Source: Paenibacillus uliginis N3/975 (GTDB lineage: Bacteria; Bacillota; Bacilli; Paenibacillales; Paenibacillaceae). Taken from it: a stretch of 24,000 bases of DNA. Shown piece by piece: positions 1 through 22,120 of the stretch. Numbering within the stretch: position 1 is the stretch's first letter; each line of letters begins with the position of its first letter. The notes beneath the pieces were generated by a model. It searched no databases. It worked only from the letters and a program-made list of their open reading frames with translations, and was not told the origin of the DNA. The position numbers and the translations under genes were made by a program. The stretch lies in assembly GCF_900177425.1 (NCBI RefSeq), contig NZ_LT840184.1, forward strand, positions 395,838 to 419,837, given 5' to 3'.

Positions 1-2
1 AT

Positions 3-635: not shown

Positions 636-800
636 GCTATTGAAGTTATCTTGTACTCATCGTAGCCGATGTGGGTAGATGGGGAATGCATATTGAACTT
701 GTACATCTATCTTTGGTGAACATACGTGATTAGTGATTTGCAGGAAAATGTTGTGGCCGTTGGGTGTCCAGCGAAAGTAATTAAATTACGTAAGGGATGA
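636..800 (+). pseudogene. Relic of the 3' end of a left-handed beta-helix (hexapeptide) sugar N-acetyltransferase (EpsM/PglD-like)
   Basis: One frame reads AIEVILYSS*PMWVDGECILNLYIYLW*TYVISDLQENVVAVGCPAKVIKLRKG*. The last ~26 codons match the canonical ..VVAVGxPAKVIK.. C-terminus of hexapeptide acetyltransferases. There are two in-frame stops (TAG 663-665, TGA 717-719) and no N-terminal part. The relic stops 6 nt before the aminotransferase start, as in epsM-epsN or pglD-pglE type pairs. Confidence 0.5.
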
Positions 801-806
801 GACGAC

Positions 807-1955
807 ATGCTAGAACGTGGTGACAGAATTTATTTATCTTCTCCGCACATGAGTGGGTTGGAGCAGCAATATATCTCGGAAGCTTTTGAAACGAACTGGA
901 TAGCTCCTTTGGGTAGAAATGTGGATTGCTTTGAGAAGGAACTTGCTCATTATGTAGGTAGCGAAGGAGCCTTAGCTCTAAGCTCCGGCACTGCTGCAAT
1001 TCATCTGGCACTAATCCTGCTCAATGTTGGTATGGGTGATGTTGTTTTCTGTTCATCGCTGACTTTTGTTGCAAGTGCCAACCCTATTCTGTATCAAGGA
1101 GCAACCCCTGTCTTTATCGACTCTGAGCCCGAAACCTGGAATATGTCGCCTAAAGCTTTGGAGAGGGCACTTAAAGATTATGCTGCTAAAGGACAGAAGC
1201 CAAAGGCAGTCATTGTAGTCAATCTGTACGGGCAAAGCGCGGATTATGACCAGATTAAATCGATATGTGATGAATATGAAGTTCCTATTGTCGAAGATGC
1301 TGCGGAGTCCCTGGGAGCTAGTTATAAAGATAAAAAAAGCGGCACCATCGGTAAGTTTGGTGTTTTTTCTTTTAATGGCAATAAAATTATAACTACCTCG
1401 GGTGGAGGAATGTTAGTTTCGGATGATGCTGGGGCTCTGAATAAGGCGAGGTTTCTGGCTACTCAAGCCAAAGATAAAGCGGTACATTATCAGCATAGTG
1501 TAGTAGGTTTCAATTACCGTTTAAGTAACATTTCAGCAGGAATAGGTAGAGGGCAATTACAGGTTTTAAATGAACGGATTCGAAAAAAACGTGAAATTTT
1601 TAAAGTTTATTATAATGAGTTATCTCGTATTCCGGGAATTGAGTTTATGCCGGATGCACCTTATGGAAATTCTACACGTTGGTTAAGTACTATAGTTCTG
1701 GACCAGGAAGCCTTTAATATTGGTGTATATGAAGTAATTGCTCACCTTGAAAAGCATAACATTGAGTCTAGGCCTGTATGGAAACCACTTCACTTGCAGC
1801 CTTTATTTTCGGATGCCGAATTTTATTTGGATAAAGAGGTCGGGGATGTAAGTTATGATTTGTTTACGAAAGGCATCTGTTTACCTTCAGGAACAAGAAT
1901 GTCGTTAGAAGAACAAATGTATGTAATCAAGCTTATTAAGGATTACATTGGTTAA
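807..1955 (+). CDS. DegT/DnrJ/EryC1/StrS-family PLP-dependent sugar aminotransferase (EpsN/PglE-like, nucleotide-4-keto-6-deoxy-sugar aminotransferase)
   Basis: 382 aa. The N-terminus IYLSSPHMSGLEQQYISEAFETNWIAPLG resembles B. subtilis EpsN from memory, as do AAIHLAL and EDAAESLG. The PLP-lysine context is FSFNGNKIITTSGGGML. The SD AAGGGA lies 9 nt upstream of the ATG. Confidence 0.9.
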   Translation: MLERGDRIYLSSPHMSGLEQQYISEAFETNWIAPLGRNVDCFEKELAHYVGSEGALALSSGTAAIHLALILLNVGMGDVVFCSSLTFVASANPILYQGATPVFIDSEPETWNMSPKALERALKDYAAKGQKPKAVIVVNLYGQSADYDQIKSICDEYEVPIVEDAAESLGASYKDKKSGTIGKFGVFSFNGNKIITTSGGGMLVSDDAGALNKARFLATQAKDKAVHYQHSVVGFNYRLSNISAGIGRGQLQVLNERIRKKREIFKVYYNELSRIPGIEFMPDAPYGNSTRWLSTIVLDQEAFNIGVYEVIAHLEKHNIESRPVWKPLHLQPLFSDAEFYLDKEVGDVSYDLFTKGICLPSGTRMSLEEQMYVIKLIKDYIG

Positions 1956-1990
1956 TTTTAGAGGCAGAATAACCTACTTGGAGGTAGTAC

Positions 1991-3544
1991 ATGTTTCATC
2001 TTGGGGAAATTATTCAGATCACAAACAATGATTGCGATAATTTATTAGGTATTGTCTTAGAGAAAGTAAGAAATGGCGTTGTTGTATTACGAGCTGATCC
2101 TGTAATTTATGAGCAAGATTCGGATTGTGTTTTACTTTTAGGCGACCATACGGATATCCCGGTTAATATCACCGAAAAATTGTATGTAGATGAAAAGGAT
2201 GCAGTGCGTGTTGGGAACGTAGATATTAATACATTCGAGAAAATTAAAAGAAAAGAAATTTTATCTAATGTAAATGAATTTTATCATCTGTTTCATTGGT
2301 CTGAAAAACCGTTCATCCCAGAGGAAACATCACTTTCATATGGTGGAAGAGTATATGATGAAAGAGAAATGATGAATTTAGTAGATTCTTCATTAGATTT
2401 TTGGTTGACTTCAGGGCGGTATAGCAAACAATTTGAGAAAGAATTCGCCAAGTATATTGGCGTAAAATACGCTTTGCTTACGAATTCAGGATCATCGGCT
2501 AATCTATTGGCGTTTTCAGCATTAACCTCACCTAAACTCGGTGATCGTAGAATAAAACCTGGTGATGAAGTTATTACAGTAGCTGCCGGTTTTCCTACAA
2601 CCGTTACACCAATGGTTCAAAATGGAGCCATCCCTGTTTTTATTGATGTAGATTTAGGTACATATAACATCCTACCGGATCTTATCGAAGGTGCTATAAC
2701 ATCTAAAACAAAGGCCATCATGATCGCTCATACGATGGGAAATCCCTTTGACTTAAAAAGGGTAATGGAACTGGCAAACCACTATAAATTATGGGTTATT
2801 GAAGATAATTGTGATGCTCTGGGATCACGTTATGACGACCGAATTACAGGAACATTCGGTCATATTGCAACATCAAGCTTTTACCCTCCTCATCATATGA
2901 CAATGGGCGAAGGTGGAGCAGTTTATACTAATGACCCGCTTTTAAAAATGATTATTGAATCCTTCAGAGATTGGGGAAGGGATTGTTGGTGTCCGTCGGG
3001 TTGCGATAACACTTGCAAAAAACGTTTCGGTTGGGAGCTAGGGACCCTTCCTTACGGTTATGACCATAAATATACTTATTCTCACATTGGCTACAATCTG
3101 CGCGTAACGGATATGCAAGCCGCTATTGGTTTAGAACAGTTAAAGAAAGTTCCTAAATTTATTCAAAGACGTATTCATAACTTTAATCGTTTATTTGAAG
3201 GTTTACGCGATTTGGAGCAATACTTCATACTCCCTAAAGCTACAGATCATTCTCAGCCAAGCTGGTTTGGTTTTATTTTAACTTTAAAAGATGATGCAGG
3301 ATTCACCCGAAAAGACATTGTAGATTATCTTGAAGCACGTAAAATACAAACCCGCATGCTTTTTGCAGGTAACCTTACAAGACAGCCAGCATTTCAAGGT
3401 GTGAATTATCGTATACATGGTGATCTGAAAAATACCGATAAGATATTAAAAGATACATTTCTCATTGGGGTCTATCCAGGCTTAACTGACGAAATGATTG
3501 ATTACATTGTTTTTACAATTAGGGAGTTTATCAGCACGATTTAA
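1991..3544 (+). CDS. rfbH: CDP-6-deoxy-L-threo-D-glycero-4-hexulose 3-dehydrase (E1; RfbH/DdhC) with an extra ~80-aa N-terminal domain
   Basis: NSGSSANLLAFSALTSPKLGDRRIKPGDEVITVAAGFPTTV is near-identical to the RfbH consensus. SFYPPHHMTMGEGG has His in place of the PLP lysine, the E1 hallmark. The Cys-rich DCWCPSGCDNTCKKRFG motif fits the Fe-S site. A strong SD (GGAGG) sits 6 nt before the ATG at 1991. At 517 aa it is longer than the ~437 aa typical of RfbH. Confidence 0.87.
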   Translation: MFHLGEIIQITNNDCDNLLGIVLEKVRNGVVVLRADPVIYEQDSDCVLLLGDHTDIPVNITEKLYVDEKDAVRVGNVDINTFEKIKRKEILSNVNEFYHLFHWSEKPFIPEETSLSYGGRVYDEREMMNLVDSSLDFWLTSGRYSKQFEKEFAKYIGVKYALLTNSGSSANLLAFSALTSPKLGDRRIKPGDEVITVAAGFPTTVTPMVQNGAIPVFIDVDLGTYNILPDLIEGAITSKTKAIMIAHTMGNPFDLKRVMELANHYKLWVIEDNCDALGSRYDDRITGTFGHIATSSFYPPHHMTMGEGGAVYTNDPLLKMIIESFRDWGRDCWCPSGCDNTCKKRFGWELGTLPYGYDHKYTYSHIGYNLRVTDMQAAIGLEQLKKVPKFIQRRIHNFNRLFEGLRDLEQYFILPKATDHSQPSWFGFILTLKDDAGFTRKDIVDYLEARKIQTRMLFAGNLTRQPAFQGVNYRIHGDLKNTDKILKDTFLIGVYPGLTDEMIDYIVFTIREFISTI

Positions 3545-3562
3545 CGACAGGGAGGGTTAGTT

Positions 3563-4360
3563 ATGAAGGTGGTAATTTTGGCAGGTGGGTACGGTACAAG
3601 AATCAGTGAAGAATCTCATCTTAAGCCAAAACCAATGATAGAAATAGGGCATAGACCTATACTGTGGCATATTTTAAAGATCTATTCTAGCTACGGGTTT
3701 AATGATTTTATAATATGTTTGGGTTATAAAGGTTTTGTCATTAAGGAGTATTTCGCTAACTACTTCCTGCATGAATCGGATGTGACATTCGATTTTAGAA
3801 ACGGAAATCAGAATATAACGCATAATCATTCTGCCGAACCTTGGAAGGTAACCTTGGTGAATACCGGTATTGATACCATGACTGGTGGAAGGATAAAACG
3901 AATCCAACCTTACATTAGTAACGAGCCGTTTTTCCTTACTTACGGTGATGGAGTTTCAAACGTAGATATTCATAAACTTTTAGATTTTCATAAAATGAAT
4001 GGAAGACTTGCTACGGTAACCTCTACCCAGCCCGAGGGTCGTTTTGGAATTCTAGATATCGATGATCATAGCCAGGTAAGAGGATTTCAGGAAAAACCTA
4101 AAGGCGACCATAGCTGGATAAACGGGGGATTCTTTGTACTTCAACCTGAAATATTTAATTATATTGAGGGCGACCATACGGTTTTTGAAAAAGAACCACT
4201 AGAACAACTAGCCAAGGATGGAGAACTTACCGCATATAAACATAACGGTTTTTGGCATCCGATGGATACGTTACGCGACAAAAATTATCTTGAAAGTTTA
4301 TGGGCTAATAATAAAGCCCCTTGGAAAGTATGGGAAGATAATCGGGTGATGTCATTATGA
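3563..4360 (+). CDS. rfbF: Glucose-1-phosphate cytidylyltransferase (RfbF/DdhA)
   Basis: MKVVILAGGYGTRISEESHLKPKPMIEIGHRPILWHILKIYSSYGFNDFIICLGYKG is the classic RfbF N-terminus. The length (265 aa) is typical. The SD GGAGGG lies 6 nt upstream. Confidence 0.94.
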   Translation: MKVVILAGGYGTRISEESHLKPKPMIEIGHRPILWHILKIYSSYGFNDFIICLGYKGFVIKEYFANYFLHESDVTFDFRNGNQNITHNHSAEPWKVTLVNTGIDTMTGGRIKRIQPYISNEPFFLTYGDGVSNVDIHKLLDFHKMNGRLATVTSTQPEGRFGILDIDDHSQVRGFQEKPKGDHSWINGGFFVLQPEIFNYIEGDHTVFEKEPLEQLAKDGELTAYKHNGFWHPMDTLRDKNYLESLWANNKAPWKVWEDNRVMSL

Positions 4361-5424
4361 AAGATTTTTGGAACGGGAAAAGAGTTTTCCTTACGGGACA
4401 TACAGGTTTTAAGGGATCATGGTTGAGTATGTGGCTATCCATGCTTGGAGCGCAGGTTAAAGGTTATGCATTGGAACCTCCAACTGAGCCCAGTTTGTTT
4501 GAACTGTGTAAAGTAAAGGAGTTGCTAGTTCAGTCTGTTATCAAGGATATAAGGGACTTAGATTCGCTGAAGAGAGAAATGGTAGATTTTCAGCCGGAGA
4601 TAGTCATTCACATGGCAGCTCAACCTTTAGTTAGGGAGTCTTATAGTATTCCGGTAGATACTTACTCTATAAATGTTATGGGTACGGTAAACCTGTTTGA
4701 GGCAGTTCGTGTGACGAAAAGCGTAAAATCAGTTGTCAATGTGACCACGGATAAATGTTATGAAAATAAAGAATGGGTGTGGGGTTACAGGGAAGGGGAA
4801 ACTTTAGGAGGATATGATCCTTATTCCAGCAGCAAGGCTTGCGCGGAGTTAGTAACGGATGCTTATAGAAATTCTTACTTTCCAGCAGAGTATTATGATC
4901 TTCACGGCGTGGCGATTGCCACAGTAAGAGCGGGAAATGTGATCGGTGGTGGGGATTGGGCTAAAGATCGATTGATTCCTGATTGTATGCAATCGCTAAT
5001 ATTAGGAGAGCCCATACACATCAGAAATCCGCATTCCATCAGACCATGGCAACATGTCCTTGAACCATTGAGTGGATACTTGATGATAGCCCAAAGATTG
5101 TTTGAAGACGGAACAGCATACGAAGGAGCATGGAACTTTGGCCCTAACGATCAAGATACAAGATCGGTCGAATGGATTGTCCAGAACTTGTGCGACAAGT
5201 GGAAAGGAAGTCAGGGTTATGTTGTTGAACAGGGTGATCACCCACATGAAGCGGCTTTTTTGAAGTTGGACTGTTCTAAATCCAGAATGAAACTAGGTTG
5301 GTCTCCTCGCTGGGAGTTGGGTGAAGCCCTAGATTATATTATTGAATGGACTGAGGCTTTTAAGAACGGTGAAGGTCTTAGTGCTGTATGCTTTAACCAA
5401 ATTTCGAGATACGAGGGTTTTTAA
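4357..5424 (+). CDS. rfbG: CDP-glucose 4,6-dehydratase (RfbG/DdhB)
   Basis: FWNGKRVFLTGHTGFKGSWLSMWL is the Rossmann motif. YSSSKACAE is the SDR YxxxK motif. The length (355 aa) is typical. An ATGA start/stop overlap with rfbF indicates translational coupling. Confidence 0.94.
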   Translation: MKDFWNGKRVFLTGHTGFKGSWLSMWLSMLGAQVKGYALEPPTEPSLFELCKVKELLVQSVIKDIRDLDSLKREMVDFQPEIVIHMAAQPLVRESYSIPVDTYSINVMGTVNLFEAVRVTKSVKSVVNVTTDKCYENKEWVWGYREGETLGGYDPYSSSKACAELVTDAYRNSYFPAEYYDLHGVAIATVRAGNVIGGGDWAKDRLIPDCMQSLILGEPIHIRNPHSIRPWQHVLEPLSGYLMIAQRLFEDGTAYEGAWNFGPNDQDTRSVEWIVQNLCDKWKGSQGYVVEQGDHPHEAAFLKLDCSKSRMKLGWSPRWELGEALDYIIEWTEAFKNGEGLSAVCFNQISRYEGF

Positions 5425-5433
5425 CGTGGTTTA

Positions 5434-5484
5434 ATTAATGGTAAAAGTATTATCACAGGTGCAGCCGGTTTTGTTGGTACTTTA
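5434..5484 (+). pseudogene. Relic of the N-terminus of an extended-SDR (NAD-dependent epimerase/dehydratase) gene
   Basis: The spacer between rfbG and the ThDP gene translates in frame 1 as INGKSIITGAAGFVGTL. This is the TGxxGxxG Rossmann motif found at the extreme N-terminus of extended SDRs. It has no in-frame start; the ATG at 5438 is one nt out of frame. The motif breaks off after ~17 codons into the SD and start of the next gene. Confidence 0.45.
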
Positions 5485-5499
5485 GGGAGGGGAAAACTT

Positions 5500-7275
5500 G
5501 TGAAAATGAGAGTTGCAGATTATATTACTAACGCATTATATGATGCAGGTGGAAAGCATGTCTTTTTAGTAACTGGTGGTATGATTATGCACCTGACAGA
5601 TGCTTTATACCAGCATGAAAAACAAACTTATGTATGTTGTCATCATGAACAAGCTGTAGCAATGGCAGCTGAAGCTTATGGTAGATATACTGGTGAATTA
5701 GGTGTTGCATATGTAACGGCAGGCCCGGGTGCACTTAACACGATAACAGGAGTAGCGGGTGCATTTATTGATTCATCTCCATCAATTATTGTTGCCGGAA
5801 ACTCAAAAGTTTCATTAGCAAAGATTAAAGGACCTAGGCAATTCCCTCTTCAAGGGTTCGATTCCCTGCCGATATTTGATCGGATCACTAAATATGCCGT
5901 GATGCTGGATGATATATCTAAAGTAAAGTATGAAGTTCAAAAATGTATTCATATAGCGAAAAGTCATCGTGTGGGCCCGGTATATTTAGAGGTTCCAGTA
6001 GATTTACAGGGTGCAACATTTGATCCTGATCTTTATGAAGACTACGTGCCTGAAACAACAGTAGAAGTATGTAGTAACACAGATATTCAAATTGAAATGG
6101 TTAAGGAAGCACTACTAACTAGTAAGCGTCCTTGTCTATTAGTTGGAGCGGGAGTTCGGCTAGCAGGAGCCATAGAAAAATTCATGACTTTTATTAGAAA
6201 AACTGGTATTCCGGTGTTAACTTCACGACTCGGAATGGATCTAATCGATTATCACCATCATCAATTTGTTGGAAGACCTGGAACATATGGTGATCGACCT
6301 GCAAACTTCACAGTCCAGAATGCTGATTTGCTAATTGTAGTGGGTTGTAGGTTAGGAATTGGTTTAGTAGGCTATGACTTCGAGGATTTTGGAAAGAAAG
6401 CTAAAAAAATAATAGTAGATATAGATGACTTAGAATTGAGTAAACCATCGGTTATTCCTGATATTGCAATTAAAGAAGATGCTAAAGTTTTCTTTGACAA
6501 AATGAATGCGGTTATTGATAACGGTAGCTTTAATTATTCTGCTTGGGTGGATCAAACACAACTATGGAAAAGAAAATATCCTGTAAACTTACCTGAATAT
6601 TCCAATGAAACACAGGGTATTAACTCATATCGTGCAATGACCCACTTTTCAGAACGTGTAGGTAAAGATTCTACCTTTGTAGTTGATACAGGTTCTTGTT
6701 TTCACGTTCACGCACAGGCATTTAAAGTGAAACTAGAACAACGCCACATAATTACTGGTGGTCTTTCAACAATGGGATATACTCCAGCTGCGATTGGAGT
6801 TTCTGTTGCTAAGGGTGGGAATGAAGTATATTGCATAACTGGAGACGGGTCATTCCAAATGAACTTACAGGAATTGCAAACTATCGCACATTATAAACTT
6901 CCAATAAAATTTTTTCTACTTAACAACGGTGGATATTTATTAATACGACATACACAAAACAACTTTATGGAAGGCCGTTATATTGGCGAGAGTAGTGATT
7001 CTGGTGTAGGCTTTGCAAGCTTAGAAAAAGTAGCTGAAACATTTGGCTTAGGGTTCATGAAAATTTCAAATCTAAAAGAATTAGATGAGAAAATAGACGA
7101 TTTCATTCACTATAAAGGAGCTATGATATGTGAAGTTATGACTCCGTCTAATCAGCTTCTCATTCCGAGAGTTGCATCTGAAAAGTTAGCAGATGGAACG
7201 ATGGTATCTAAAGCATTCGATGATATGTTTCCTTTCATGTCTAGGGAAGAGTATTACTCAAATTGTTTAGATTAA
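5500..7275 (+). CDS. Thiamine-diphosphate-dependent enzyme, acetolactate-synthase large-subunit-like (YerE-like candidate sugar C-branching carboligase)
   Basis: 591 aa. The N-terminal Pyr domain reads VADYITNALYDAGGKHVFLVTGG...HEQAVAMAAEAYGR. The ThDP-binding motif is ITGDGSFQMNLQELQTIAHYKLPIKFFLLNNGGY. The SD GGGAGGGG lies 7 nt before the GTG at 5500; an ATG at 5506 is an alternative start. Confidence 0.85.
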   Translation: MKMRVADYITNALYDAGGKHVFLVTGGMIMHLTDALYQHEKQTYVCCHHEQAVAMAAEAYGRYTGELGVAYVTAGPGALNTITGVAGAFIDSSPSIIVAGNSKVSLAKIKGPRQFPLQGFDSLPIFDRITKYAVMLDDISKVKYEVQKCIHIAKSHRVGPVYLEVPVDLQGATFDPDLYEDYVPETTVEVCSNTDIQIEMVKEALLTSKRPCLLVGAGVRLAGAIEKFMTFIRKTGIPVLTSRLGMDLIDYHHHQFVGRPGTYGDRPANFTVQNADLLIVVGCRLGIGLVGYDFEDFGKKAKKIIVDIDDLELSKPSVIPDIAIKEDAKVFFDKMNAVIDNGSFNYSAWVDQTQLWKRKYPVNLPEYSNETQGINSYRAMTHFSERVGKDSTFVVDTGSCFHVHAQAFKVKLEQRHIITGGLSTMGYTPAAIGVSVAKGGNEVYCITGDGSFQMNLQELQTIAHYKLPIKFFLLNNGGYLLIRHTQNNFMEGRYIGESSDSGVGFASLEKVAETFGLGFMKISNLKELDEKIDDFIHYKGAMICEVMTPSNQLLIPRVASEKLADGTMVSKAFDDMFPFMSREEYYSNCLD

Positions 7276-7309
7276 TTATTGTTTTAATCAAGAGGTATTA
7301 ATAAAAATT

Positions 7310-8218
7310 ATGGGGAATAACATCATGATTGATAGTAGATTGAAAGTGGCTATCTTGGGAAGCGGGAATATAGGGACTGATCTTCTTATGAAGACGATTA
7401 GATCACCTTACCTGACATGCACTTATTTTGTTGGCAGGCATATAGATTCTCTTGGAATACAAAAAGCAATGAGAAAAGGAATAAGAGTATCAGATCAAAG
7501 TATTGATGCATTAATTAATGATCCTGATAGTTTTGATCTAGTGTTCGATGCAACCTCAGCAAAAAGCCATAAAGCGCATGCTCCTATCCTTAAGGAGATG
7601 GGGAAGGTTGTAATCGATTTAACTCCATCCAACATCGGAGAAAAGTGTGTTCCTGCCGTTAATATTGATCGATGTATTCATTACGACAATGTGAATATGG
7701 TTACATGTGGGGGACAAGCATCAATTCCGTTAGCTTTTGCTATTGGTCAAACACAAACAGATGTTGAATACATTGAAGTTGTTTCTAGTATTGCTTCTAA
7801 AAGTGCTGGCCCAGCTACTCGGAATAACCTGGATGAGTATATTGAAACGACAGAAAAAGGGATTAGCAAGTTTTCAAATTGTAACCAAGTAAAAGCTATA
7901 CTCAACTTGAATCCTGCTGAACCATGTATTGATATGCAAACCACTGTGTTTGCTAAGGTAAAAAGCCCTCGGTTAGTGAATTTAACTAAATATGTAAATG
8001 AAATGGTTGAAAAAATGCGAAATTACGTACCGGGCTATCAATTGCTTATTCCTCCAACAATTGAGAATGAAAGAATTGTAATTATGGTAAAAGTTCAGGG
8101 CCTGGGGGATTTCTTGCCTGCTTATGCTGGTAATTTAGATATCATTAATTGTGCAGCTATTGCTATGGCAGAGAAACATGCATTAGCTAGAAATGTTTCA
8201 AATGAGAGAGGAGTATAG
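7310..8218 (+). CDS. Acetaldehyde dehydrogenase (acetylating, CoA-dependent), DmpF/MhpF family
   Basis: KVAILGSGNIGTDLLMKTIRS is the NAD-binding motif. NVNMVTCGGQASIP is the catalytic Cys motif of the DmpF family. The length (~300 aa) fits. The ATG at 7325 (SD GGGGA, 8-nt spacer) is a better start than 7310. Confidence 0.85.
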   Translation: MGNNIMIDSRLKVAILGSGNIGTDLLMKTIRSPYLTCTYFVGRHIDSLGIQKAMRKGIRVSDQSIDALINDPDSFDLVFDATSAKSHKAHAPILKEMGKVVIDLTPSNIGEKCVPAVNIDRCIHYDNVNMVTCGGQASIPLAFAIGQTQTDVEYIEVVSSIASKSAGPATRNNLDEYIETTEKGISKFSNCNQVKAILNLNPAEPCIDMQTTVFAKVKSPRLVNLTKYVNEMVEKMRNYVPGYQLLIPPTIENERIVIMVKVQGLGDFLPAYAGNLDIINCAAIAMAEKHALARNVSNERGV

Positions 8219-8219
8219 C

Positions 8220-9227
8220 ATGCATCAAGTACTAATTAGTGACCCTACTTTGCGTGATGGATCACATGCTGTTCGTCATCAAATAACATTTGAACATATG
8301 ATGTTGTACGCTGAACTAGCTGAGGCTGCGGGGATACCCATTCTAGAAGTTGGGCATGGTAACGGATTAGGGGCCTCATCCTTGCAATTGGGTAAAAGCC
8401 TTGTATCAGACGCCCATATGTTAATAGGCTGTAGAGAAAAGTTGGTTAATACTAAGTTGGGTATCCATGTAATACCAGGTTTTGCGACTATTAATAAAGA
8501 CTTGAAAAATGCAATAGATATTGGTGTAAACGTTGTTCGTGTAGCTTCTCACTGTACTGAGGCTGATATTACGAAGTGTCATATCGAGTATGCAAGAGAA
8601 AGAGACGTTGAGGCATTTGGAGTGCTAATGATGTCGCATATGGCATCGGCGACAAAGTTGCTTGAAGAAGCAAAAAAAATGCAAAGTTATGGTGCTCAAG
8701 CTGTTATCCTTATGGATTCTGCGGGAGCCTATTTCCCTAGCGATGTTAGCGAGAGAATAACTAGATTAGTTCATGATCTTGAGATTCCCGTAGGATTTCA
8801 TGCGCACAATAATTTAGGGATGGCGATTGCCAATTCGATTACTGCTCTTGAGAGTGGGGCTGTAATTCTAGATGGAACAATTAGAGGATTCGGTGCTGGA
8901 GCAGGAAATGCTCAACTTGAATTGTTAGTTGCAGTGTTAGAGAGACTGGGATATAAAACAGGTATTGATCTATATAAATTGTTAGATGCTGCTGATATTG
9001 CTGAATCACATTTCGCCAAGGTCCCATATGTGAGTTCAACAAATATTGTGAGTGGACTTTCAGGTGTTTTCTCTGGGTTTGCTAAGCCAGTCGAGAGAAT
9101 ATCTAGGGAGTTTGGTTTAGATCCTAAAGATATCTTCTTCGAATTAGGGCGTAGAAAGGTTGTCGCAGGTCAAGAAGACATAATCCTCGAAGTTGCAGTA
9201 TCATTATCACAAAAGTCGGGTGAGTAA
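8220..9227 (+). CDS. 4-hydroxy-2-oxovalerate aldolase, DmpG/MhpE/BphI family (class II pyruvate aldolase)
   Basis: ISDPTLRDGSHAVRHQ, HAHNNLGMAIANSITALESGA and DGTIRGFGAGAGNAQLELLVAVLERLGYKTGIDLYKLLDAAD match the DmpG catalytic and communication-domain motifs. The start is re-set to the ATG at 8220 (SD GAGGAG, 6-nt spacer), 1 nt after the DmpF-like stop. The track start at 8193 overlaps the upstream gene. Confidence 0.87.
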   Translation: MHQVLISDPTLRDGSHAVRHQITFEHMMLYAELAEAAGIPILEVGHGNGLGASSLQLGKSLVSDAHMLIGCREKLVNTKLGIHVIPGFATINKDLKNAIDIGVNVVRVASHCTEADITKCHIEYARERDVEAFGVLMMSHMASATKLLEEAKKMQSYGAQAVILMDSAGAYFPSDVSERITRLVHDLEIPVGFHAHNNLGMAIANSITALESGAVILDGTIRGFGAGAGNAQLELLVAVLERLGYKTGIDLYKLLDAADIAESHFAKVPYVSSTNIVSGLSGVFSGFAKPVERISREFGLDPKDIFFELGRRKVVAGQEDIILEVAVSLSQKSGE

Positions 9228-9231
9228 TGAT

Positions 9232-10176
9232 ATGTTGAAAAAGAATCATGTTAATATTGCTATCATAGGAGCAACAGGCCATATTGCGAAAAACCTGATT
9301 GTTGGATTAAGTAATGAACGAAAATATAACTTATTATTATTTGCTCGTAATCATAACAAACTTAATCAATTTATTAATTGTTGTGTTAGTAATAAAAAAA
9401 ATATTTCAATTCATTATTTTGATAATTTCTTGCTAGGTGAATTTGATGTAATTATTAATTGTATCGGCATTGGTAATCCTACTGTCTTAACTCAGTCATA
9501 TGCACATATATTTAGCATAACAGAGGAATTTGATAATTTAATATTAGAGTACCTGCATAAGAACACGAGTACTTTATATATTAACTTCAGTAGCGGTGCA
9601 GCATATGGAGCTGACTTTTATTCACCAGCAACAGTTGATAAACATGCTTTATTTAGCATTAATAATATAAGTACAAATGATTACTACTCGATCGCGAAGC
9701 TGAATTCTGAGAAAAAGCACAGAGCATATTCTAACTTTAGCATCATAGATTTAAGAATCTTTGGCTTCTTTAGTAGATATATAGATTTGAAAAATGCTTA
9801 TTTTATGAATGACTTACTTCGAAGTGTGAGAGATGGAGTAAAATTCATAACCAGCAGTGATGATATGTTTAGGGACTACATACATCCCATTGATTTATTG
9901 AATATTATACAAAAGTGTATTGAGTTACAAACAGTTAACGATGTATTTGATGTGTATAGTCTGAATCCGGCTTCTAAGTTTGAAATTGTGGATCTTTTTA
10001 AAAAGACATACAACATTGAGGTACAAGTTCAGGATGTTCGTTTTGATTCTCCAACTGGAAATAAGTTAAATTATTACTCAGAAAACTATAACTTAGAGAG
10101 TATAGGTTATACACCTAGATATACTTCACTCGAAACAGTTAGTAGTGAAACCAAAGCTATCTTCAACTTGGTGTGA
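9232..10176 (+). CDS. NAD(P)-dependent SDR-family oxidoreductase (epimerase/reductase; candidate sugar or branch ketoreductase)
   Basis: The N-terminal Rossmann motif is NIAIIGATGHIAKNLI. The YxxxK motif is YYSIAKLNSE. The start is re-set to the ATG at 9232, 4 nt after the aldolase stop. The gene is extremely AT-rich and its specificity cannot be determined from sequence. Confidence 0.7.
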   Translation: MLKKNHVNIAIIGATGHIAKNLIVGLSNERKYNLLLFARNHNKLNQFINCCVSNKKNISIHYFDNFLLGEFDVIINCIGIGNPTVLTQSYAHIFSITEEFDNLILEYLHKNTSTLYINFSSGAAYGADFYSPATVDKHALFSINNISTNDYYSIAKLNSEKKHRAYSNFSIIDLRIFGFFSRYIDLKNAYFMNDLLRSVRDGVKFITSSDDMFRDYIHPIDLLNIIQKCIELQTVNDVFDVYSLNPASKFEIVDLFKKTYNIEVQVQDVRFDSPTGNKLNYYSENYNLESIGYTPRYTSLETVSSETKAIFNLV

Positions 10177-10368
10177 TATCCCTATATCATCCATAATCTC
10201 TAGATTGGAGACCGTTGGTTGGAGAAACCTCTAGTAAGAGGTCAGTCATTGTTTCGATGAGTTAATTTATGCAACTAACTTGAAGCATTAGTGTTATTTA
10301 GGAAACAGTCTTATCGAATTTACAAAATCAATAGATCACTTGAGGTTCATTGATCTTCACTTTTATGT

Positions 10369-10416
10369 AAAGAAAGACCCGCAAGAGCGAAAAAGTCTCC
10401 TTGCGGGTCTTTCTTT
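10369..10416. terminator. Bidirectional rho-independent terminator between convergent genes
   Basis: A perfect 17-bp stem, AAAGAAAGACCCGCAAG (10369-10385) pairing with CTTGCGGGTCTTTCTTT (10400-10416), encloses a 14-nt loop. The A/T runs within the arms give a U-tract on both strands. It sits between the SDR stop (10176) and the minus-strand GT2 stop (10424). Confidence 0.8.
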
Positions 10417-10423
10417 GCATATT

Positions 10424-12286
10424 TTATTGTAACTTTGCGTTAATAAAGCTGAAGCCTTCTTCAATTAATTTCAAATCCTTCTGATAATGGAGGCGGTCAC
10501 TACTTACATTTGTTTTATAGAATTGTTCATTAGAACAGAATTGATACGCCTTTTCATTCAATTCCCGTAGGTCCAAATTTGTTTTACTGTAAAATGCTTG
10601 AATTGAGATGGCAACTAGAATACAGGTTTTTGAACAAAGCTGCAAGTACATCTTTCTACGAAGGTCAATATCTTCTTTATATATTTCTAAATCTCTAAAA
10701 AACACTGCGAAATCTTCGTGTTGCTCCAATCTTCCTTCAATCGATGCATAGTAAGGTATGATTAATTTCTCTATTTCAACTTCATCGCAGTCCGTTTTTT
10801 CAGCCAGACCTTCGTGTATTAGTACTAGTTCTGTACTCTGTACATGACCATATTGGCATAACAGCATCTCCCACACCATATGAGGATACCAAAAGCATGC
10901 ACTATTACTTATATTAACTTTGATATATTGAATACCATTAGCTTTTTGAAGAAGTTTATTACTATATATAATACCTGACATGTAATTAGAGGACAGCATA
11001 AATTGTAACATTGCTTCTTTACCCATAGATGCAATTTTATTGGATTGTTTACTTTGTGATGAAGTTGATGCTCTAAAAATGGATAGTGTCTCTTTAGATT
11101 TATTTAGACTATCCATAATTATACTGAGAACTTTGGAATCGATTTGATCCTCATCGCTCAATAGTAAAATGAATTCTCCCTTTGCTAGCTCGCACACTTT
11201 ACAACAGTTCAGCGCGTATCCTTGGTTTTCTTCAAAGGCAAAGTATGTTAATCTTGCATCTTCAATTTCACTAATTTTTTCATAGTATGCTTTTGTTTCA
11301 TTTTGAGTCCCATTGTTGGATAATATAATTTCAATTTCTTCATTGTAATGGAATTGCAGTAACTGGATGATGTTTTCATATGCTTTGTGTCCTCTGTTAT
11401 AGCTTGGGATACAAATGCTCAGTAGTATGCGATTTCCGTTTCTATGTTCTTTACTTATACGAGTGTTGTGGATATCTGAAAGAACATTCTTGCTTACATC
11501 AGATTTGTCCTCTGTCAGGTCAATTATATTATAAGGAAGTATTGAGTTAGTAGTTAACAGGTACTCCTTCAATTTATATAGATTGTCGAAAATCATTATA
11601 TTTGAAATATCGTCTAACAACGATCCTTGTAAGCAGGATAAAAACTTGTCTATCTGATTTATTATTATGTATGACTTTTTGTTAAGTTTCCTTGTAGCGT
11701 TAGTAATGGCTACAATATTATTCCAATCCCATTCTTCAAGTACTAAAAAGTCAGAAAAAGCATCTGAAATGGTTACGGAGGGTATCTGTTGATATTGATA
11801 TAATGATATTTTTTCTTTTATCAGCTGCTGCTCTTTATCATACAAGTAGTATTCATTCTGAACGCCCGTTGGAAGCAACCAAAAAGATAACTCTTGAAAT
11901 GGTAGGCTATTCTCGATATATAGATATGAATTTTTATTTAAGTATTCAATGTTAGCCTCATAGTTATCTTGGAATTCATTTAAATTAGGCTCGATAAAAG
12001 CTTCATAGAGCACTTTTTCTATTTCCTCTCTTGAATATCCATTTTCTTGTGCTTTAATGAGCATCATAAAAAATGAATCAAACTCAGATACTCTGAACAG
12101 GAAATATGCAAATGAGAGGTAGACCCTTGCCAGTAAATAATGGGAGTTGCTGTTCTCTCTTTCTAGTTCTTCAATAAGCTCGATATAACTATTGTACGCC
12201 TCATCCACCAACCCGGTATTAACCTGATCATCTATTTTTACTAAAGCTTGATTTATTCGTTGTTCTAATAGATTGTCATTTATCAT
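10424..12286 (-). CDS. Multidomain glycosyltransferase family 2 protein (central GT-A domain flanked by uncharacterised N- and C-terminal regions)
   Basis: 620 aa. The central segment LSICIPSYNRGHKAYENI...IILSNNGTQNET...ENQGYALNCCKVCELAKGEFILLLSDEDQID is a typical GT2 core with a DxD-like SDED. About 290 aa N-terminal (helical-repeat-like start) and ~220 aa C-terminal match nothing I recognise. The SD AGAGGA lies upstream of the ATG on the minus strand. Confidence 0.7.
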   Translation of the reverse strand: MINDNLLEQRINQALVKIDDQVNTGLVDEAYNSYIELIEELERENSNSHYLLARVYLSFAYFLFRVSEFDSFFMMLIKAQENGYSREEIEKVLYEAFIEPNLNEFQDNYEANIEYLNKNSYLYIENSLPFQELSFWLLPTGVQNEYYLYDKEQQLIKEKISLYQYQQIPSVTISDAFSDFLVLEEWDWNNIVAITNATRKLNKKSYIIINQIDKFLSCLQGSLLDDISNIMIFDNLYKLKEYLLTTNSILPYNIIDLTEDKSDVSKNVLSDIHNTRISKEHRNGNRILLSICIPSYNRGHKAYENIIQLLQFHYNEEIEIILSNNGTQNETKAYYEKISEIEDARLTYFAFEENQGYALNCCKVCELAKGEFILLLSDEDQIDSKVLSIIMDSLNKSKETLSIFRASTSSQSKQSNKIASMGKEAMLQFMLSSNYMSGIIYSNKLLQKANGIQYIKVNISNSACFWYPHMVWEMLLCQYGHVQSTELVLIHEGLAEKTDCDEVEIEKLIIPYYASIEGRLEQHEDFAVFFRDLEIYKEDIDLRRKMYLQLCSKTCILVAISIQAFYSKTNLDLRELNEKAYQFCSNEQFYKTNVSSDRLHYQKDLKLIEEGFSFINAKLQ

Positions 12287-12499: not shown

Positions 12500-12529
12500 T
12501 TGACAATGGATATCTTTGGATGATATAGT
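12500..12529 (+). promoter_or_regulatory. Sigma-A-type promoter for cspB
   Basis: TTGACA (12500-12505), an 18-nt spacer, then TATAGT (12524-12529) preceded by TG (extended -10). It lies ~63 nt upstream of the csp ATG, consistent with a csp 5' UTR. Confidence 0.55.
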
Positions 12530-12592: not shown

Positions 12593-12790
12593 ATGCAAGG
12601 TAAAGTTAAATGGTTCAACGCAGAGAAGGGTTATGGCTTCATTGAAACTGAAGACGGCGGCGACGTATTTGTACATTTTTCCGCAATCCAGTCGGAAGGC
12701 TTCAAGACTCTGGAAGAAGGACAATCCGTAGAGTTCGAAATCGTTGAAGGTGCCCGCGGACCGCAAGCAGCTAACGTAATCAATATATAA
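12593..12790 (+). CDS. cspB: Cold-shock protein (CspA/CspB family, single CSD)
   Basis: The sequence [62 protein letters not shown] contains the RNP1 (KGYGFI) and RNP2 (VFVHF) motifs. It is close to B. subtilis CspB. Confidence 0.95.
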
Positions 12791-12856
12791 TCATCCCGGC
12801 TCAGCCGACCTACATATGCGGTATAGATGGTTAACAATTGAAGATTCGGTAGCGAC

Positions 12857-12886
12857 AGACTCCGGTGAATGCCGGAGTCTTTTTTT
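12857..12886 (+). terminator. Rho-independent terminator of cspB
   Basis: A 9-bp stem, AGACTCCGG (12857-12865) pairing with CCGGAGTCT (12872-12880), has a 6-nt loop and is followed by T6 (12881-12886). Confidence 0.85.
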
Positions 12887-13409
12887 GTTGCGTGCCCAGA
12901 AGCACGCATTATCTAGTTGGTGAAAGTCCAACCGAAGGAGGGTCCAAGCCACCTTCGTAGCTAGGACACCTGCGTATGGAGAAATCCATGCGTAGAAGCG
13001 TGTCGACGAAAGTATCTGTCAGTGACAGGGCGAGCAATATGCCAGGCCGTAACATAAAGTGAATCCTGCCGCGTCGTCAAAAGGGCCTCGCAAGAGGGAA
13101 AAGAGGGAGCCGAGTCTTGAGCAAATGGGCGAAGGCCAAGGAAGCTGTAAAGAACTTGGAGCAACAGCGAAGAATCCTCCGGCGTAAGGGGATCGGCATG
13201 GGATAAAAGATAATGCAGTGAACTGGGGAGACCCTCCCCTGCACAGAAAAAAAAACTGTAAAAGGATGCTCTATAAGCCAAAAGTGAAATGAGTTATTCG
13301 CAGGAAGGGAGTCCGAGGGGTTCATAGTACTGAAAAACTGCAGGACAACATAACCTGCGGGAGGGAAGGAACCCTGCTTTGTTCATGTTTCTTAAGGAGG
13401 TACGAGTCA

Positions 13410-14701
13410 GTGAATGCCAACAGGCTAACAACACCAAAGGAAAACGTTCAACAACTCCAAGAGAAACTAGGTCATGCGGCCAAGGAAAACAAAAAGCGCA
13501 GATTTCACGCGCTGTACGATAAGGTATATCGGATGGATATATTGTGGGAAGCATGGCGAAGAGTGCGAGCCAATAAAGGTTCCGCAGGAGTAGATGGCCA
13601 GACCCTAAAAGAGATTGAAGAAAAAGGGGAATTCGTCTTTATCCATGAATGTCATCGGCTCCTTAAAGAAGGTGCTTACCACCCGCAACCTGTACGGAGA
13701 CACTACATCCCAAAGAAGGATGGAAAGCAAAGACCGTTAGGCATACCAACCATCCGAGATCGCGTCATACAGATAGCGACTAAACTGGTCATGGAACCAA
13801 TTTTGAAGCGGATTTTCAAGAAGTATCATTTGGTTTTCGCCCCAAACGGGGTGCAAAAGGAGCGCTTGACCGCATCCGTAAAGCCTGTAACCGTAAAGGA
13901 AATTGGGTGGTCGACGTCGACATCCAAGGCTACTTTGACAACATTAATCAAGAGAAACTAATGAAACTGGTAGAAATGCGAATCAGTGACAGACGAGTGT
14001 TGAAACTAGTACGAAAGTGGCTAACGGCAGGAGTCATGGAAGAAGGAACAGTAAGGCGCTCGGATCTTGGGACACCACAAGGTGGTGTCATATCACCGTT
14101 ATTGGCAAACATCTATTTAAACTACTTCGATGTGCTATGGGAAAAGCATGGCAGTAAACTAGGTGAACTAACACGATATGCGGATGACTTTGTGGTTGTT
14201 TGCAAGACGAAGAAAGATGCGGAGCATACATACAAGCTCATACGCACCATAATGGAACGCCTAGAATTAACGCTGCACCCGACAAAAACTCGAATCGTGG
14301 GATTATGGACAGGAGAAAAAGGTTTTGACTTTCTTGGAATGCACCATCGCAAGGCGAGAGCAGAAACGGCTAGAAGTCAAGGGTATTACACGACCCAACA
14401 ATGGTTAACGAAGAAGGCTGAAAAGCGAATTCGGGAAGTTATTAAAGAGCGGTTAGCGCCACCGAGTATGCGAAAGATATCTGTTCAAGAACATATTGAA
14501 TGGCTCAATCCCAAAATACAAGGATGGCGTAACTATTATTATACTTCTTATAGCCAACGGAAGTTAGCAAAGCTAGATTGGTACATTATGCAACAGCTCA
14601 GCCGATGGTACGCTAAAAAAAGACAACGGAGAAGATGGATGAGTTCGCTTGCCGAAGTGAAATTCATGACCAAACAATATGGATTAAAGACGCTATTGTA
14701 A
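13410..14701 (+). pseudogene. Group II intron-encoded reverse transcriptase/maturase, interrupted by a single 1-nt frameshift
   Basis: The ORFs at 13410-13961 and 13907-14701 are two halves of one protein. The first half carries RT domains 0-2 (KGSAGVDGQTLKEIE, RPLGIPTIRDRVIQ). The second carries RT 3-7 (VDVDIQGYFDNINQEKL, GTPQGGVISPLLANIYL, the YADDFVV catalytic motif) and the X/maturase domain. Reading ATT TTT GAA instead of the observed ATT TTG AA at 13800-13807 restores EPIFEADFQEVSFGFRPKRGA. The start is a GTG with SD AAGGAGG 9 nt upstream. Confidence 0.88.
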
Positions 14702-14731
14702 TCTGCATGCCCATGAAAGACGAACATCGGA

Positions 14732-14764
14732 AAGCCGTATGAGGGAAAACCTCACGTACGGTTT
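14732..14764 (+). ncRNA. Group II intron domain V (catalytic hairpin)
   Basis: The sequence is AGCCGUAU-GAGG-GAAAA-CCUC-AC-GUACGGUU. It has the AGC catalytic triad, the two-nt AC bulge and a GAAA-type loop, matching the domain V consensus. Confidence 0.85.
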
Positions 14765-14976
14765 GATGAGGAGGGGCTGAAAAAAAACTTCAGCCCTTTA
14801 CTCTAGTGGTTTAAGCAGAAATAAAGAAATGTTTTGAGGGTTTCAAAATAAAAAAGAATACGCTTTTCAGCACCAAATCCCCTTCAAATAAGGGTCTCGC
14901 AACTGTCCCTGAACGGGTTCCTTTATGCTCTATACGAAAGTACTTTTAAGCTCGATAACATACACAATTTCGACTT

Positions 14977-15005
14977 TTTACATGGGCTTAACAAAGTGTT
15001 ATAAT
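14977..15005 (+). promoter_or_regulatory. Sigma-A-type promoter for hpf
   Basis: TTTACA (14977-14982), a 17-nt spacer, then TATAAT (15000-15005) with an upstream TG (extended -10). It lies 25 nt before the hpf ATG. Confidence 0.55.
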
Positions 15006-15029
15006 GAAGGTGCAAAGGAGGAGTGCCCT

Positions 15030-15593
15030 ATGCAATACAGTATTCGAGGTCAACAAATTGAAGTGACCGAAGCTTTAAAGGACTACGTTGACAAGAAGCT
15101 CAACAGACTTGAGAAGTATTTTGATGCACCCCTTACCTCTGAAGGATACGTAACACTAAGTGTCATTCGAGGATTGCACACGGTGGAAGTGACCATTCCG
15201 CTGCCAGGCGTTGTCCTGCGGGCGGAAGATCGAAGCGACGATATGTACGCTTCCATGGACGCTGTTGTGGACAAATTGGAACGACAGATCCGCAAACACA
15301 AGACGAAGTTAAACCGCAAGTTCCGCCAGGAAGGTAGTCTGAAGACGCTGTTTGTGGAGAATGGAGCCGCAACGGGTTCCGTAGCTGTCCAACATGAGGA
15401 ACACGACGAAGATGAATTGGAAGTAGTCCGTACGAAGCGTTTCACCATGAAACCGATGGATGTGGAAGAGGCCATTTTGCAAATGAACATGGTCGGTCAT
15501 AATTTCTTCGTATTCACCAACATTGATTCACAAGAAGTGAATGTCGTTTACAAACGTGATGACGGAAAGTACGGTTTAATCGAGAGGGATTAG
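15030..15593 (+). CDS. hpf: Ribosome hibernation-promoting factor, long form (HPF/YvyD)
   Basis: MQYSIRGQQIEVTEALKDYVDKKLNRLEKYF begins the N-terminal S30AE/RaiA domain. The C-terminal dimerisation domain reads VVRTKRFTMKPMDVEEAILQMNMVGHNFFVFTN. The SD AAGGAGG precedes the ATG at 15030; the track start at 14925 has no SD. It lies upstream of secA, as yvyD does in B. subtilis. Confidence 0.93.
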   Translation: MQYSIRGQQIEVTEALKDYVDKKLNRLEKYFDAPLTSEGYVTLSVIRGLHTVEVTIPLPGVVLRAEDRSDDMYASMDAVVDKLERQIRKHKTKLNRKFRQEGSLKTLFVENGAATGSVAVQHEEHDEDELEVVRTKRFTMKPMDVEEAILQMNMVGHNFFVFTNIDSQEVNVVYKRDDGKYGLIERD

Positions 15594-15670
15594 GCTCACC
15601 GAACTCTTACCGGAAATGTAGCTGTACTCGTACAATCCGAATTTACGGCTTAACATGAAAAGTGGAAGAC

Positions 15671-15706
15671 GAGCCTTCACCCGTGAATAGCGGGGGGAGG
15701 CTCTTT
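15671..15706 (+). terminator. Probable terminator after hpf (weak U-tract)
   Basis: A 13-position stem with one mismatch, GAGCCTTCACCCG pairing with CGGGGGGAGGCTC, has a 7-nt loop. It is followed only by TTTATAC. Confidence 0.5.
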
Positions 15707-15737
15707 ATACGTATATAAGAAGAGATCGCTTAATGTG

Positions 15738-15766
15738 TTGCGGCATCTCTTACAAACTGTTACAAT
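15738..15766 (+). promoter_or_regulatory. Candidate sigma-A promoter for secA
   Basis: TTGCGG (15738-15743), a 17-nt spacer, then TACAAT (15761-15766) with TG at -15/-14. It would leave a ~150-nt leader before the secA ATG. Confidence 0.45.
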
Positions 15767-15916
15767 TTATGCAAACAAACTAATCCGGCAGGTATGTTTT
15801 TGTCTGCCAGGAATGAAAATTTTTCATTTAGTTTCAATGAATCGATTTCATCATACAACCCTTTGGCACTTAATGAAGTTGATTCTATCATCTGTTTTGC
15901 ACGAAAGGGGTTAACC

Positions 15917-18424: not shown

Positions 18425-18721
18425 GGTATCAATTAAATAGTTAGGCGTACTGCTGTGACTAGCGGTACAATCATAGACTCCCTTGAGAGTAAACAAGGGA
18501 ATACCGGGATGGCTTTAATGCGCATCAGGTATTCCCCTGTGCATTCTTAAGGGAGTTGTTCTGAAGAAAAAAGAAAATACGGTGTATGAGAAATGGTCTC
18601 CATCTGCCTGAATTGAACTCACGTGGAACCCCATATCCATCCCTCCCGATTGGCCCAAGAACGTTTTTCCTGGTATGAAGGGTATAATGAACTTATAAGT
18701 GAAAAGAAAGGACGAGGTGTC

Positions 18722-19835: not shown

Positions 19836-19853
19836 GAGGAGAATGTAACCATC

Positions 19854-21358: not shown

Positions 21359-21403
21359 GCGAGCACACGATATAATGATAACTAATCTATTGGGGGTGTC
21401 GAT

Positions 21404-21973: not shown

Positions 21974-22033
21974 GGACAAGTCTATTAATTCATTTATGGA
22001 TTCCCATTTTTTAATTTAAATGAAAGATACCTG

Positions 22034-22062: not shown

Positions 22063-22120
22063 AATACATATTTATGAGACGGGATAGTGAAAATCTACCA
22101 GACGCGAGTGGGAGAGAGGG

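Follow-up and report, generated by a model that had tools for sequence, protein, structure and literature searches.

Erwiniose is one of the acyl-branched sugars brought under a unifying biosynthetic scheme by Steitz et al. in 2022 (PMC9306805), and its pathway is the closest described counterpart of the system analyzed here, a pair of adjacent DmpF/DmpG-type genes in a 24,000-nucleotide stretch of the Paenibacillus uliginis N3/975 genome (contig NZ_LT840184.1; the whole stretch is called the window below). In Pectobacterium atrosepticum SCRI1043, the genes for the thiamine diphosphate (ThDP)-dependent enzyme ErwE and the reductase ErwF adjoin those for the BphI-like aldolase ErwI and the BphJ-like acetaldehyde dehydrogenase ErwJ (PMC9306805). 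ErwE converts 4-hydroxy-2-oxopentanoate with a preference for the R enantiomer, the one homochiral with erwiniose, and rejects pyruvate (PMC9306805). The order deduced for the pathway begins with the formation of acetaldehyde from acetyl-CoA by ErwJ; ErwI then adds the acetaldehyde to pyruvate, ErwE couples the resulting keto acid to cytidine diphosphate (CDP)-4-keto-3,6-dideoxyglucose, and ErwF reduces the branch (PMC9306805). This erwiniose scheme was partly demonstrated and is otherwise a proposal, and caryophyllose and "gastriose" were placed under the same logic with other aldolases (PMC9306805). The YerE/YerF pathway for yersiniose A in Yersinia pseudotuberculosis is similar in that a ThDP carboligase acts on CDP-4-keto-3,6-dideoxyglucose before a reductase does. 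However, pyruvate is the direct donor there, no aldolase or dehydrogenase takes part, and the branch has two carbons, whereas the window has a dedicated pair between its ThDP gene and its gene for a short-chain dehydrogenase/reductase (SDR). More than 200 YerE-like clusters came from an in-silico study of 2024, as cited in PMC12247030.

We propose, with a probability of about three in four, that the DmpF/DmpG-type pair of the window makes the branch precursor in an erwiniose-type pathway, whose product would be an acyl-branched 3,6-dideoxyhexose. The genes that would make up this pathway are the following.

1991-3544, plus strand: E1 (RfbH/DdhC), CDP-4-keto-6-deoxyglucose 3-dehydrase (NCBIfam RfbH, 737 bits, cut-off 423)
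3563-4360, plus strand: RfbF/DdhA, glucose-1-phosphate cytidylyltransferase (TIGR02623, 439 bits, cut-off 300)
4357-5424, plus strand: RfbG/DdhB, CDP-glucose 4,6-dehydratase (TIGR02622, 508 bits, cut-off 278)
5500-7275, plus strand: YerE-like ThDP-dependent carboligase (all three TPP_enzyme domains; GDG motif)
7310-8218, plus strand: acetylating acetaldehyde dehydrogenase of the DmpF/ErwJ type (TIGR03215, Pfam AcetDehyd-dimer)
8220-9227, plus strand: class II pyruvate aldolase of the DmpG/ErwI type (TIGR03217, HMGL-like, DmpG_comm)
9232-10176, plus strand: extended SDR of the ErwF type, predicted branch-carbonyl ketoreductase (Pfam Epimerase, 2.3e-12)

The Pectobacterium cluster was reached with a Janthinobacterium ThDP protein as the query, and its members include WP_011093010.1, which is ErwE. 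In the P. atrosepticum locus (L092), the gene order is E3-RfbF-RfbG-E1-HpcH/HpaI aldolase-ErwE-ErwF (311 amino acids)-ErwJ-ErwI-second SDR (351 amino acids), and a second Pectobacterium locus (L091) has an identical order. The same four enzyme types thus stand beside RfbF, RfbG and E1 in the window and in Pectobacterium, and ErwI and ErwJ are the closest homologues of the window pair with an experimental context. Compared with the proteins of L092, the window aldolase was 62% identical to ErwI, the dehydrogenase 55% to ErwJ, the SDR 37% to ErwF (over 310/314 residues, E 7e-72) and the ThDP enzyme 38% to ErwE; the nucleotide-sugar enzymes were 59% (RfbF), 60% (RfbG) and 57% (E1) identical. Measured against the catabolic DmpG (1nvm), the window aldolase and ErwI had 43% and 41% identity, respectively. 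The order of the four genes differs, being E-J-I-F in the window and E-F-J-I in Pectobacterium, and the window host is a low-GC Gram-positive bacterium. In the SDR sequence, the GxxGxxG, Ser and YxxxK motifs are visible, and no solved structural relative was found for it at E<=0.01. Its start is the ATG at 9232, 4 nucleotides (nt) past the DmpG stop; a TTG start at 9193 was rejected. A preliminary description of this DNA, made from the sequence alone, had inferred an anabolic route to a C4 branch. This agrees with the published erwiniose scheme (PMC9306805), the window having homologues of all four Erw proteins at 37 to 62% identity. Its remark that the enzymes for erwiniose and caryophyllose were undefined is out of date, as they were assigned in 2022 (PMC9306805).

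The solved relatives of the pair are the catabolic complexes DmpFG, BphIJ and HsaFG (PDB 1nvm, 4jn6, 4lrs and 8ih7), with which it shares the folds, the catalytic Cys, the ligands, the communication domain and the adjacency of the two genes. The DmpF-type protein matched the NCBIfam equivalog TIGR03215 with 371 bits (cut-off, 282) and the Pfam dimerization domain AcetDehyd-dimer with 166 bits. The DmpG-type protein, encoded by the sole aldolase gene of the window cluster, matched the equivalog TIGR03217 with 382 bits (cut-off, 286), the Pfam HMGL-like barrel at 2.6e-42 and the DmpG communication domain at 2.2e-24. The dehydrogenase motifs are intact, both the Rossmann motif GSGNIG (GxGxxG) and NMVTCGGQA with the catalytic Cys, and the aldolase sequence contains LRDGSHA and HAHNNLG. 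The metal and pyruvate ligands Arg17, Asp18, His21, His200 and His202 (DmpG numbering) are kept in the window aldolase and in every aligned homologue. The DmpF stop codon TAG occupies 8216-8218 and the DmpG ATG begins at 8220, leaving a gap of 1 nt, with a ribosome-binding site, GAGAGGAG, lying 5' of this ATG. The longest DmpG open reading frame opens at 8193; homologues start at a position matching 8220. The identities of the two genes, their catalytic motifs (NMVTCGGQA, RDGSHA and HAHNNLG) and their 1-nt spacing had all been named in the preliminary description, and the family scores and the sequence bear them out. A physical complex with aldehyde channelling is a prediction, for which the sequence displays the communication domain and the 1-nt spacing.

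That both proteins exceed the curated cut-offs for catabolic enzymes would fit an ordinary catabolic DmpFG pair that had landed in a glycan island, or one supplying pyruvate or acetyl-CoA locally. Against this, scans with Pfam and NCBIfam models found no meta-cleavage genes (hydratase, hydrolase or dioxygenase) anywhere in the 24-kb window, and the neighbors encode nucleotide-sugar enzymes, as the preliminary description had stated. The pair is also part of one co-oriented operon, in which 1 nt separates DmpF from DmpG and 4 nt separate DmpG from the SDR gene. A third line of evidence came from phylogeny. In a neighbor-joining tree, the catabolic DmpG set, consisting of the four solved aldolases, a Thermus pTT27 gene and five Bacilli genes, was split from the window clade in 60/60 bootstraps. 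The placement relative to catabolic clades, a check proposed in the preliminary description, thus puts the window aldolase in a separate, noncatabolic clade; ErwI and ErwJ group with the window pair.

The signature residues differ in both subunits as well. The catabolic aldolases have Asp53, Gly57, Leu88, Leu89, Ile93, Tyr291 and Ser/Thr293. At these positions, the window aldolase has Asn53, Ala57, His88, Val89, Phe93, Phe291 and Gly293, as do ErwI and most members of the other clade, in which residue 88 is sometimes Phe, Tyr or Leu. Leu88 and Tyr291 were found in 4/4 solved catabolic aldolases and in six other catabolic-type sequences; His88 and Phe291 take their places in the window aldolase and likewise in ErwI. 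In BphI, the corresponding Leu-87 and Tyr-290 lie beside the substrate C4 and impose 4S selectivity (PMC3962088). The Y290F variant lost stereocontrol, and the L87N/Y290F and L87W/Y290F variants cleave the 4R enantiomer only (PMC3962088). From the sequences, we infer that the His88/Phe291 aldolases are naturally 4R-selective, because these residues stand at the positions that invert BphI and because ErwE consumes the R enantiomer. In the dehydrogenase, the segment past Rossmann strand beta-2 reads G-I-D-P-E-S in the catabolic enzymes and G-R-N/H-x-x-S, mostly with G-R-N, in the other clade; it is G-R-H-I-D-S in the window enzyme and of the G-R-N type in ErwJ. Rossmann-fold enzymes that have lost the acidic residue and gained an Arg usually prefer NADP(H). 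G-R-H in place of G-I-D therefore suggests that the window dehydrogenase uses NADPH, which would be suited to the reductive, biosynthetic direction. These arguments from reversibility and NADPH draw on general principles and on BphI, for which aldol addition is described (PMC3962088). No description of the His88/Phe291 and G-R-H signatures was found in the literature searched.

We then examined how the pair is distributed. The taxonomy of the best 120 database homologues of the window aldolase (67 to 93% identical) included Paenibacillus, Cohnella, cyanobacteria and Methanoperedens, with the closest ones in Paenibacillus. The contexts of three homologues, from Paenibacillus, Planktothrix and Methanoperedens, showed the order ThDP-DmpF-DmpG with one or two SDR genes beside genes for a nucleotidyltransferase, a 4,6-dehydratase and DegT/E1. 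A genome scan with one genome per species gave at least 80 loci, and the locus counts in this text refer to the matches listed from it. The taxa include Methanocellaceae, Altiarchaeia, Micrarchaeota, Bacteroidota, Oxalobacteraceae, Geobacter, Spirochaetota, Verrucomicrobia and candidate-phyla-radiation bacteria. A YerE-like ThDP gene was present in the fetched flanks of 60 of the 75 loci with a noncatabolic-type aldolase, in bacteria as well as archaea, and several of the 15 loci without one are short contigs. This is the outcome of the search for the same genes elsewhere that the preliminary description had also proposed. E1 and RfbF accompanied the pair in about half of the 75 loci. In 40 loci, unlike in the window, the aldolase gene is followed by one for a 350-residue SDR, and an ErwF-type SDR occurs in 17 loci other than the window. 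When DmpG was searched against plasmids by tblastn, no sugar cassette was found, and the contexts were catabolic or otherwise unrelated to sugars only. The linkage of the pair to ThDP and Rfb genes is thus conserved across phyla. Based on the phylogeny, the residues, the context and this linkage, we rejected a catabolic role and a local supply of pyruvate, and we regard them as highly improbable.

Another possibility is that the pair makes 4-hydroxy-2-oxopentanoate for a use other than a branch, for example, as the source of a 3-hydroxybutyryl or 4-hydroxynorvaline-type acyl group on the amino sugar encoded upstream. Sister pairs in Paenibacillus sp. P25 and P8, in Thermoanaerobaculia and on Phaeobacter plasmids do adjoin genes for aminotransferases, pyridoxal phosphate (PLP) decarboxylases or ATP-grasp proteins, without ThDP or Rfb genes, and the window has an aminotransferase gene and a formyltransferase-like gene. 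However, the Paenibacillus dendritiformis cassette (L001; ThDP-DmpF-DmpG-SDR-E1-RfbF-RfbG) has the full set and yet lacks the aminotransferase. The window aminotransferase is of the nucleotide-sugar DegT/LegC type and is grouped with NeuB/NeuC-like genes in the relative L090, and no acyl-activating or N-acyltransferase gene adjoins the pair. We therefore consider such a use improbable. The preliminary description had listed a 3-hydroxybutyryl N-acyl donor and a local pyruvate supply as its alternatives, both of which fit the conserved gene association poorly.

Noncatabolic-type DmpFG pairs (Phe or Cys at position 291) without sugar genes were also recorded in L006 (a Phaeobacter plasmid), L007 (a Streptomyces plasmid), L017, L025 and L028 and, further, in L008, L074 and L075 (Paraburkholderia and Trinickia). 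Their neighbors are ATP-grasp and aminotransferase genes, KAS III and acyl carrier protein genes, an SDR-CMD-ThDP set, or an SDR gene with a PLP decarboxylase gene. Such pairs probably represent other biosynthetic uses of 4-hydroxy-2-oxo acids.

Next, the ThDP enzyme, whose gene ends 34 nt upstream of DmpF, was compared with its relatives. The best solved ones were JanthE from Janthinobacterium sp. HH01 (PDB 8rph, 2e-114) and PpYerE (PDB 5ahk, 7e-76), and acetolactate synthases reached only 6e-61. The window enzyme was 59 to 93% identical to the products of ThDP genes at the same position in 11 other loci. JanthE, although the closest solved structure, has a CDG motif in contrast to the canonical GDG of the window enzyme, and the products of CDG-type genes are 33 to 37% identical to the latter, whereas enzymes of the window type have 59% or more identity among themselves. 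The ThDP genes beside DmpFG-type pairs fell into four types.

Window type: identity to the window enzyme of 59% or more; 11 further loci; never with an HpcH/HpaI gene; directly upstream of DmpF
JanthE-like type: CDG motif; about 23 loci; never with an HpcH/HpaI gene; upstream of the pair
ErwE type: closest to ErwE, with 41 to 69% identity; 15 loci; an HpcH/HpaI gene always immediately before the ThDP gene; upstream of the pair
Fourth type: 42 to 50% identical to the window enzyme; about 10 loci; no HpcH/HpaI gene; after the aldolase gene

No description of this correlation between ThDP subtype and HpaI was found in the literature searched. The CDG-type genes beside DmpFG-type pairs, usually together with RfbF, RfbG and E1, were found in L011, L012, L014-L016, L020, L022-L024, L026, L027, L030 and L031, and further ones in L033, L038-L040, L042, L045, L048, L049, L058 and L084. 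This context suggests 4-hydroxy-2-oxopentanoate and CDP-4-keto-3,6-dideoxyhexose as the substrates of JanthE-type enzymes. In two loci from a candidate-phyla-radiation genome and a Methylophilaceae genome (L050 and L060), the ThDP frames are 853 to 856 amino acids long, with a weak HpaI-like match just upstream; these long frames may be aldolase-ThDP fusions. The positions mutagenized in JanthE gave no help in predicting the donor specificity of the window ThDP enzyme.

The same comparison bears on a reversed order of events, in which the ThDP enzyme would install an acetyl branch from pyruvate, as YerE does, and the DmpG-type aldolase would then lengthen the sugar-bound branch, using acetaldehyde from the dehydrogenase. 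Both orders would lead to one final carbon skeleton, the closest solved relative of the window ThDP enzyme, JanthE, accepts pyruvate, and Steitz et al. raised this alternative themselves (PMC9306805). On the other hand, ErwE rejects pyruvate (PMC9306805). The pyruvate and metal ligands of the aldolase, Arg17 included, are all retained, an argument for a free alpha-keto acid as its substrate. The same DmpFG clade also occurs without sugar genes, so a free keto acid is the simplest product to assume for it. A reversed order is thus unlikely.

Under the erwiniose-type reading, which we prefer, the pair is probably biosynthetic although both genes pass the cut-offs for catabolic enzymes, and its predicted reaction direction is the reverse of that of the catabolic complexes. 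RfbF, RfbG and E1 would produce CDP-4-keto-3,6-dideoxy-D-glucose, with the reductase for E1 coming from outside the window. The dehydrogenase would convert acetyl-CoA to acetaldehyde, probably with NADPH, and hand the acetaldehyde to its partner aldolase, which would join it with pyruvate to give 4-hydroxy-2-oxopentanoate, probably the 4R form. The YerE-like ThDP enzyme would decarboxylate this keto acid and attach the resulting C4 acyl-anion equivalent at C-4 of the keto sugar, and the ErwF-type SDR would reduce its ketone, so that the branch becomes 1,3-dihydroxybutyl. With the longest chain as the basis of the name, the predicted product is a 3,6,8-trideoxy-4-C-(1-hydroxyethyl)octose, an erwiniose-like sugar, which a family 2 glycosyltransferase (GT2) enzyme might install in a cell-surface glycan. 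The gene identities, the operon, the homology to the Erw proteins and the gene association were computed here, the donor of ErwE and the BphI mutagenesis were taken from the literature, and we infer the direction, cofactor, stereochemistry, donor specificity of the window ThDP enzyme and final sugar.

Several points weigh against this assignment. The window ThDP enzyme shares only 38% identity with ErwE and is of another subtype, so the donor preference of ErwE is not transferable to it by homology. The window lacks the HpcH/HpaI aldolase and the second, 351-residue SDR of Pectobacterium, and the products need not match. Pectobacterium has E3 and the window has none, although E3 was not seen in most of the related loci either. 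Finally, the BphI L89A variant prefers longer aldehydes (PMC3962088), and judged by sequence, Val89 of the window aldolase, a Leu in the catabolic enzymes, could allow a longer aldehyde. The two extra Pectobacterium genes lie at 9259-9981 (HpcH/HpaI) and 14698-15753 (second SDR) in L091 and at 7209-7991 and 12695-13750, respectively, in L092. Neither the HpcH/HpaI gene, directly upstream of erwE, nor the 351-residue SDR gene, after erwI, is discussed in the main text of Steitz et al.

The mechanism was already published in 2022, and the known chemistry is unchanged; the locus would extend the known pathway to a host group that, the 2024 cluster survey aside, was unreported, and does so with a distinct ThDP subtype. 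Tentatively, and with the odds somewhat against it, the window locus could stand for a distinct, minimal lineage of acyl-branched-sugar loci, with a ThDP enzyme about 38% identical to ErwE and without the HpaI aldolase, the second SDR and E3. Loci with the window features were found in Paenibacillus, cyanobacteria, Geomonas, Fibrobacteres, Verrucomicrobia and archaea (Methanoperedens, Methanocellaceae, Methanoregulaceae and Altiarchaeia). If such a lineage exists, its DmpFG pair would have coevolved for synthesis, combining an NADPH-type dehydrogenase with a naturally 4R-selective His88/Phe291 aldolase, and it would provide sequence rules for stereochemistry and cofactor use in the aldolase family. 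An erwiniose-like octose would then be expected on a Gram-positive glycoconjugate, possibly of the S-layer or flagellum, beside a legionaminic-acid-type sugar. No report of erwiniose in Gram-positive organisms was found in the literature searched, and such an octose would, to our knowledge, be without precedent beyond Gram-negative and mycobacterial envelopes.

For annotation, hundreds of similar DmpFG-type pairs are likely misassigned to meta-cleavage. In the genomes scanned, the DmpG subclade with Phe291, usually together with His88, and its partner with G-R-N/H mostly accompany a YerE-like ThDP enzyme, and these residues could serve as annotation rules. The locus itself predicts a rare C4-branched octose in the surface glycan of Paenibacillus-like bacteria and would bring Gram-positive bacteria, cyanobacteria and archaea under the erwiniose logic. 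For biocatalysis, the clade may offer pyruvate aldolases with natural 4R selectivity as well as new YerE-like carboligases.

The remaining genes of the glycan block are the following.

1-635, plus strand: formyltransferase-like gene, truncated at the 5' window edge (Pfam Formyl_trans_N, 4e-08; frame open to base 3)
807-1955, plus strand: DegT/LegC-type sugar aminotransferase (Pfam DegT_DnrJ_EryC1, 4.9e-96)
10424-12286, minus strand: GT2-type glycosyltransferase, candidate glycan transferase (Pfam Glycos_transf_2, 8e-14, residues 290-416)

From 807 to 10176, every gene is on the plus strand with gaps of at most 75 nt, forming one operon-like block. The formyltransferase-like gene probably belongs to a neighboring amino-sugar or nonulosonate pathway outside the branch module. 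The aminotransferase, which scored 384 bits against the NCBIfam LegC model, under its cut-off of 420, is likely part of the neighboring amino-sugar pathway. In the relative L090, whose homologue of the window aldolase is 93% identical, the genes flanking the block are NeuB, NeuC-like and PglD-like ones and one for an SLH-domain protein, and a glycosyltransferase counterpart of 622 amino acids holds the same position as in the window. These flanks hint at a surface-protein or cell-wall glycan, and the glycan is probably not an O-antigen. A PglD-like acetyltransferase gene and NeuB/NeuC-like genes occupy 1-3742 of L090, where the window has its formyltransferase-like and LegC-type genes (1-1955). 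This suggests a legionaminic-acid-type nonulosonate with a differing N-acyl group in the same glycan. The N-terminal 289 residues of the window glycosyltransferase gave no significant Pfam match.

Of the gene set for CDP-4-keto-3,6-dideoxyglucose, RfbF, RfbG and E1 are present, each above its curated cut-off, and no homologue of the E3 (DdhD) reductase was found in the window; its function could be encoded elsewhere or be replaced by a general reductase. In E1, the Cys residues are spaced as C274-X57-C332-X1-C334-X7-C342, a C-X57-C-X1-C-X7-C pattern that we take to be the iron-sulfur motif of E1. The window E1 also carries an N-terminal extension of about 80 to 90 residues (1991-2260), with no Pfam match in the first 90 residues. 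The extension is also present in the Paenibacillus relatives (516 to 519 amino acids), the Pectobacterium E1 being 437 amino acids long.

The G+C content was 32 to 42% in the glycan block (1-12000), compared with 42 to 53% in the housekeeping part (13000-24000), a contrast consistent with a horizontally exchanged glycan island. Downstream of the convergent GT2 gene lie csp, a group II intron, hpf, secA, prfB and argC. The cold-shock protein gene (65 amino acids; 12593-12790, plus strand) is preceded by a near-consensus extended -10 promoter at 12500-12529 and followed by a strong terminator hairpin at 12857-12880. The group II intron begins about 30 nt past this hairpin and spans 12914-14807 (Rfam D1-D4 at 12914-13057; domain V/VI at 14730-14807). 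Its reverse-transcriptase frame is broken into two overlapping reading frames, 13410-13961 and 13907-14701, by a frameshift or a sequence error. The prfB frame (18816-19835) begins with MIANFEEK and is without the usual first 25 or so codons; the programmed +1 frameshift typical of prfB would account for this shortened frame.

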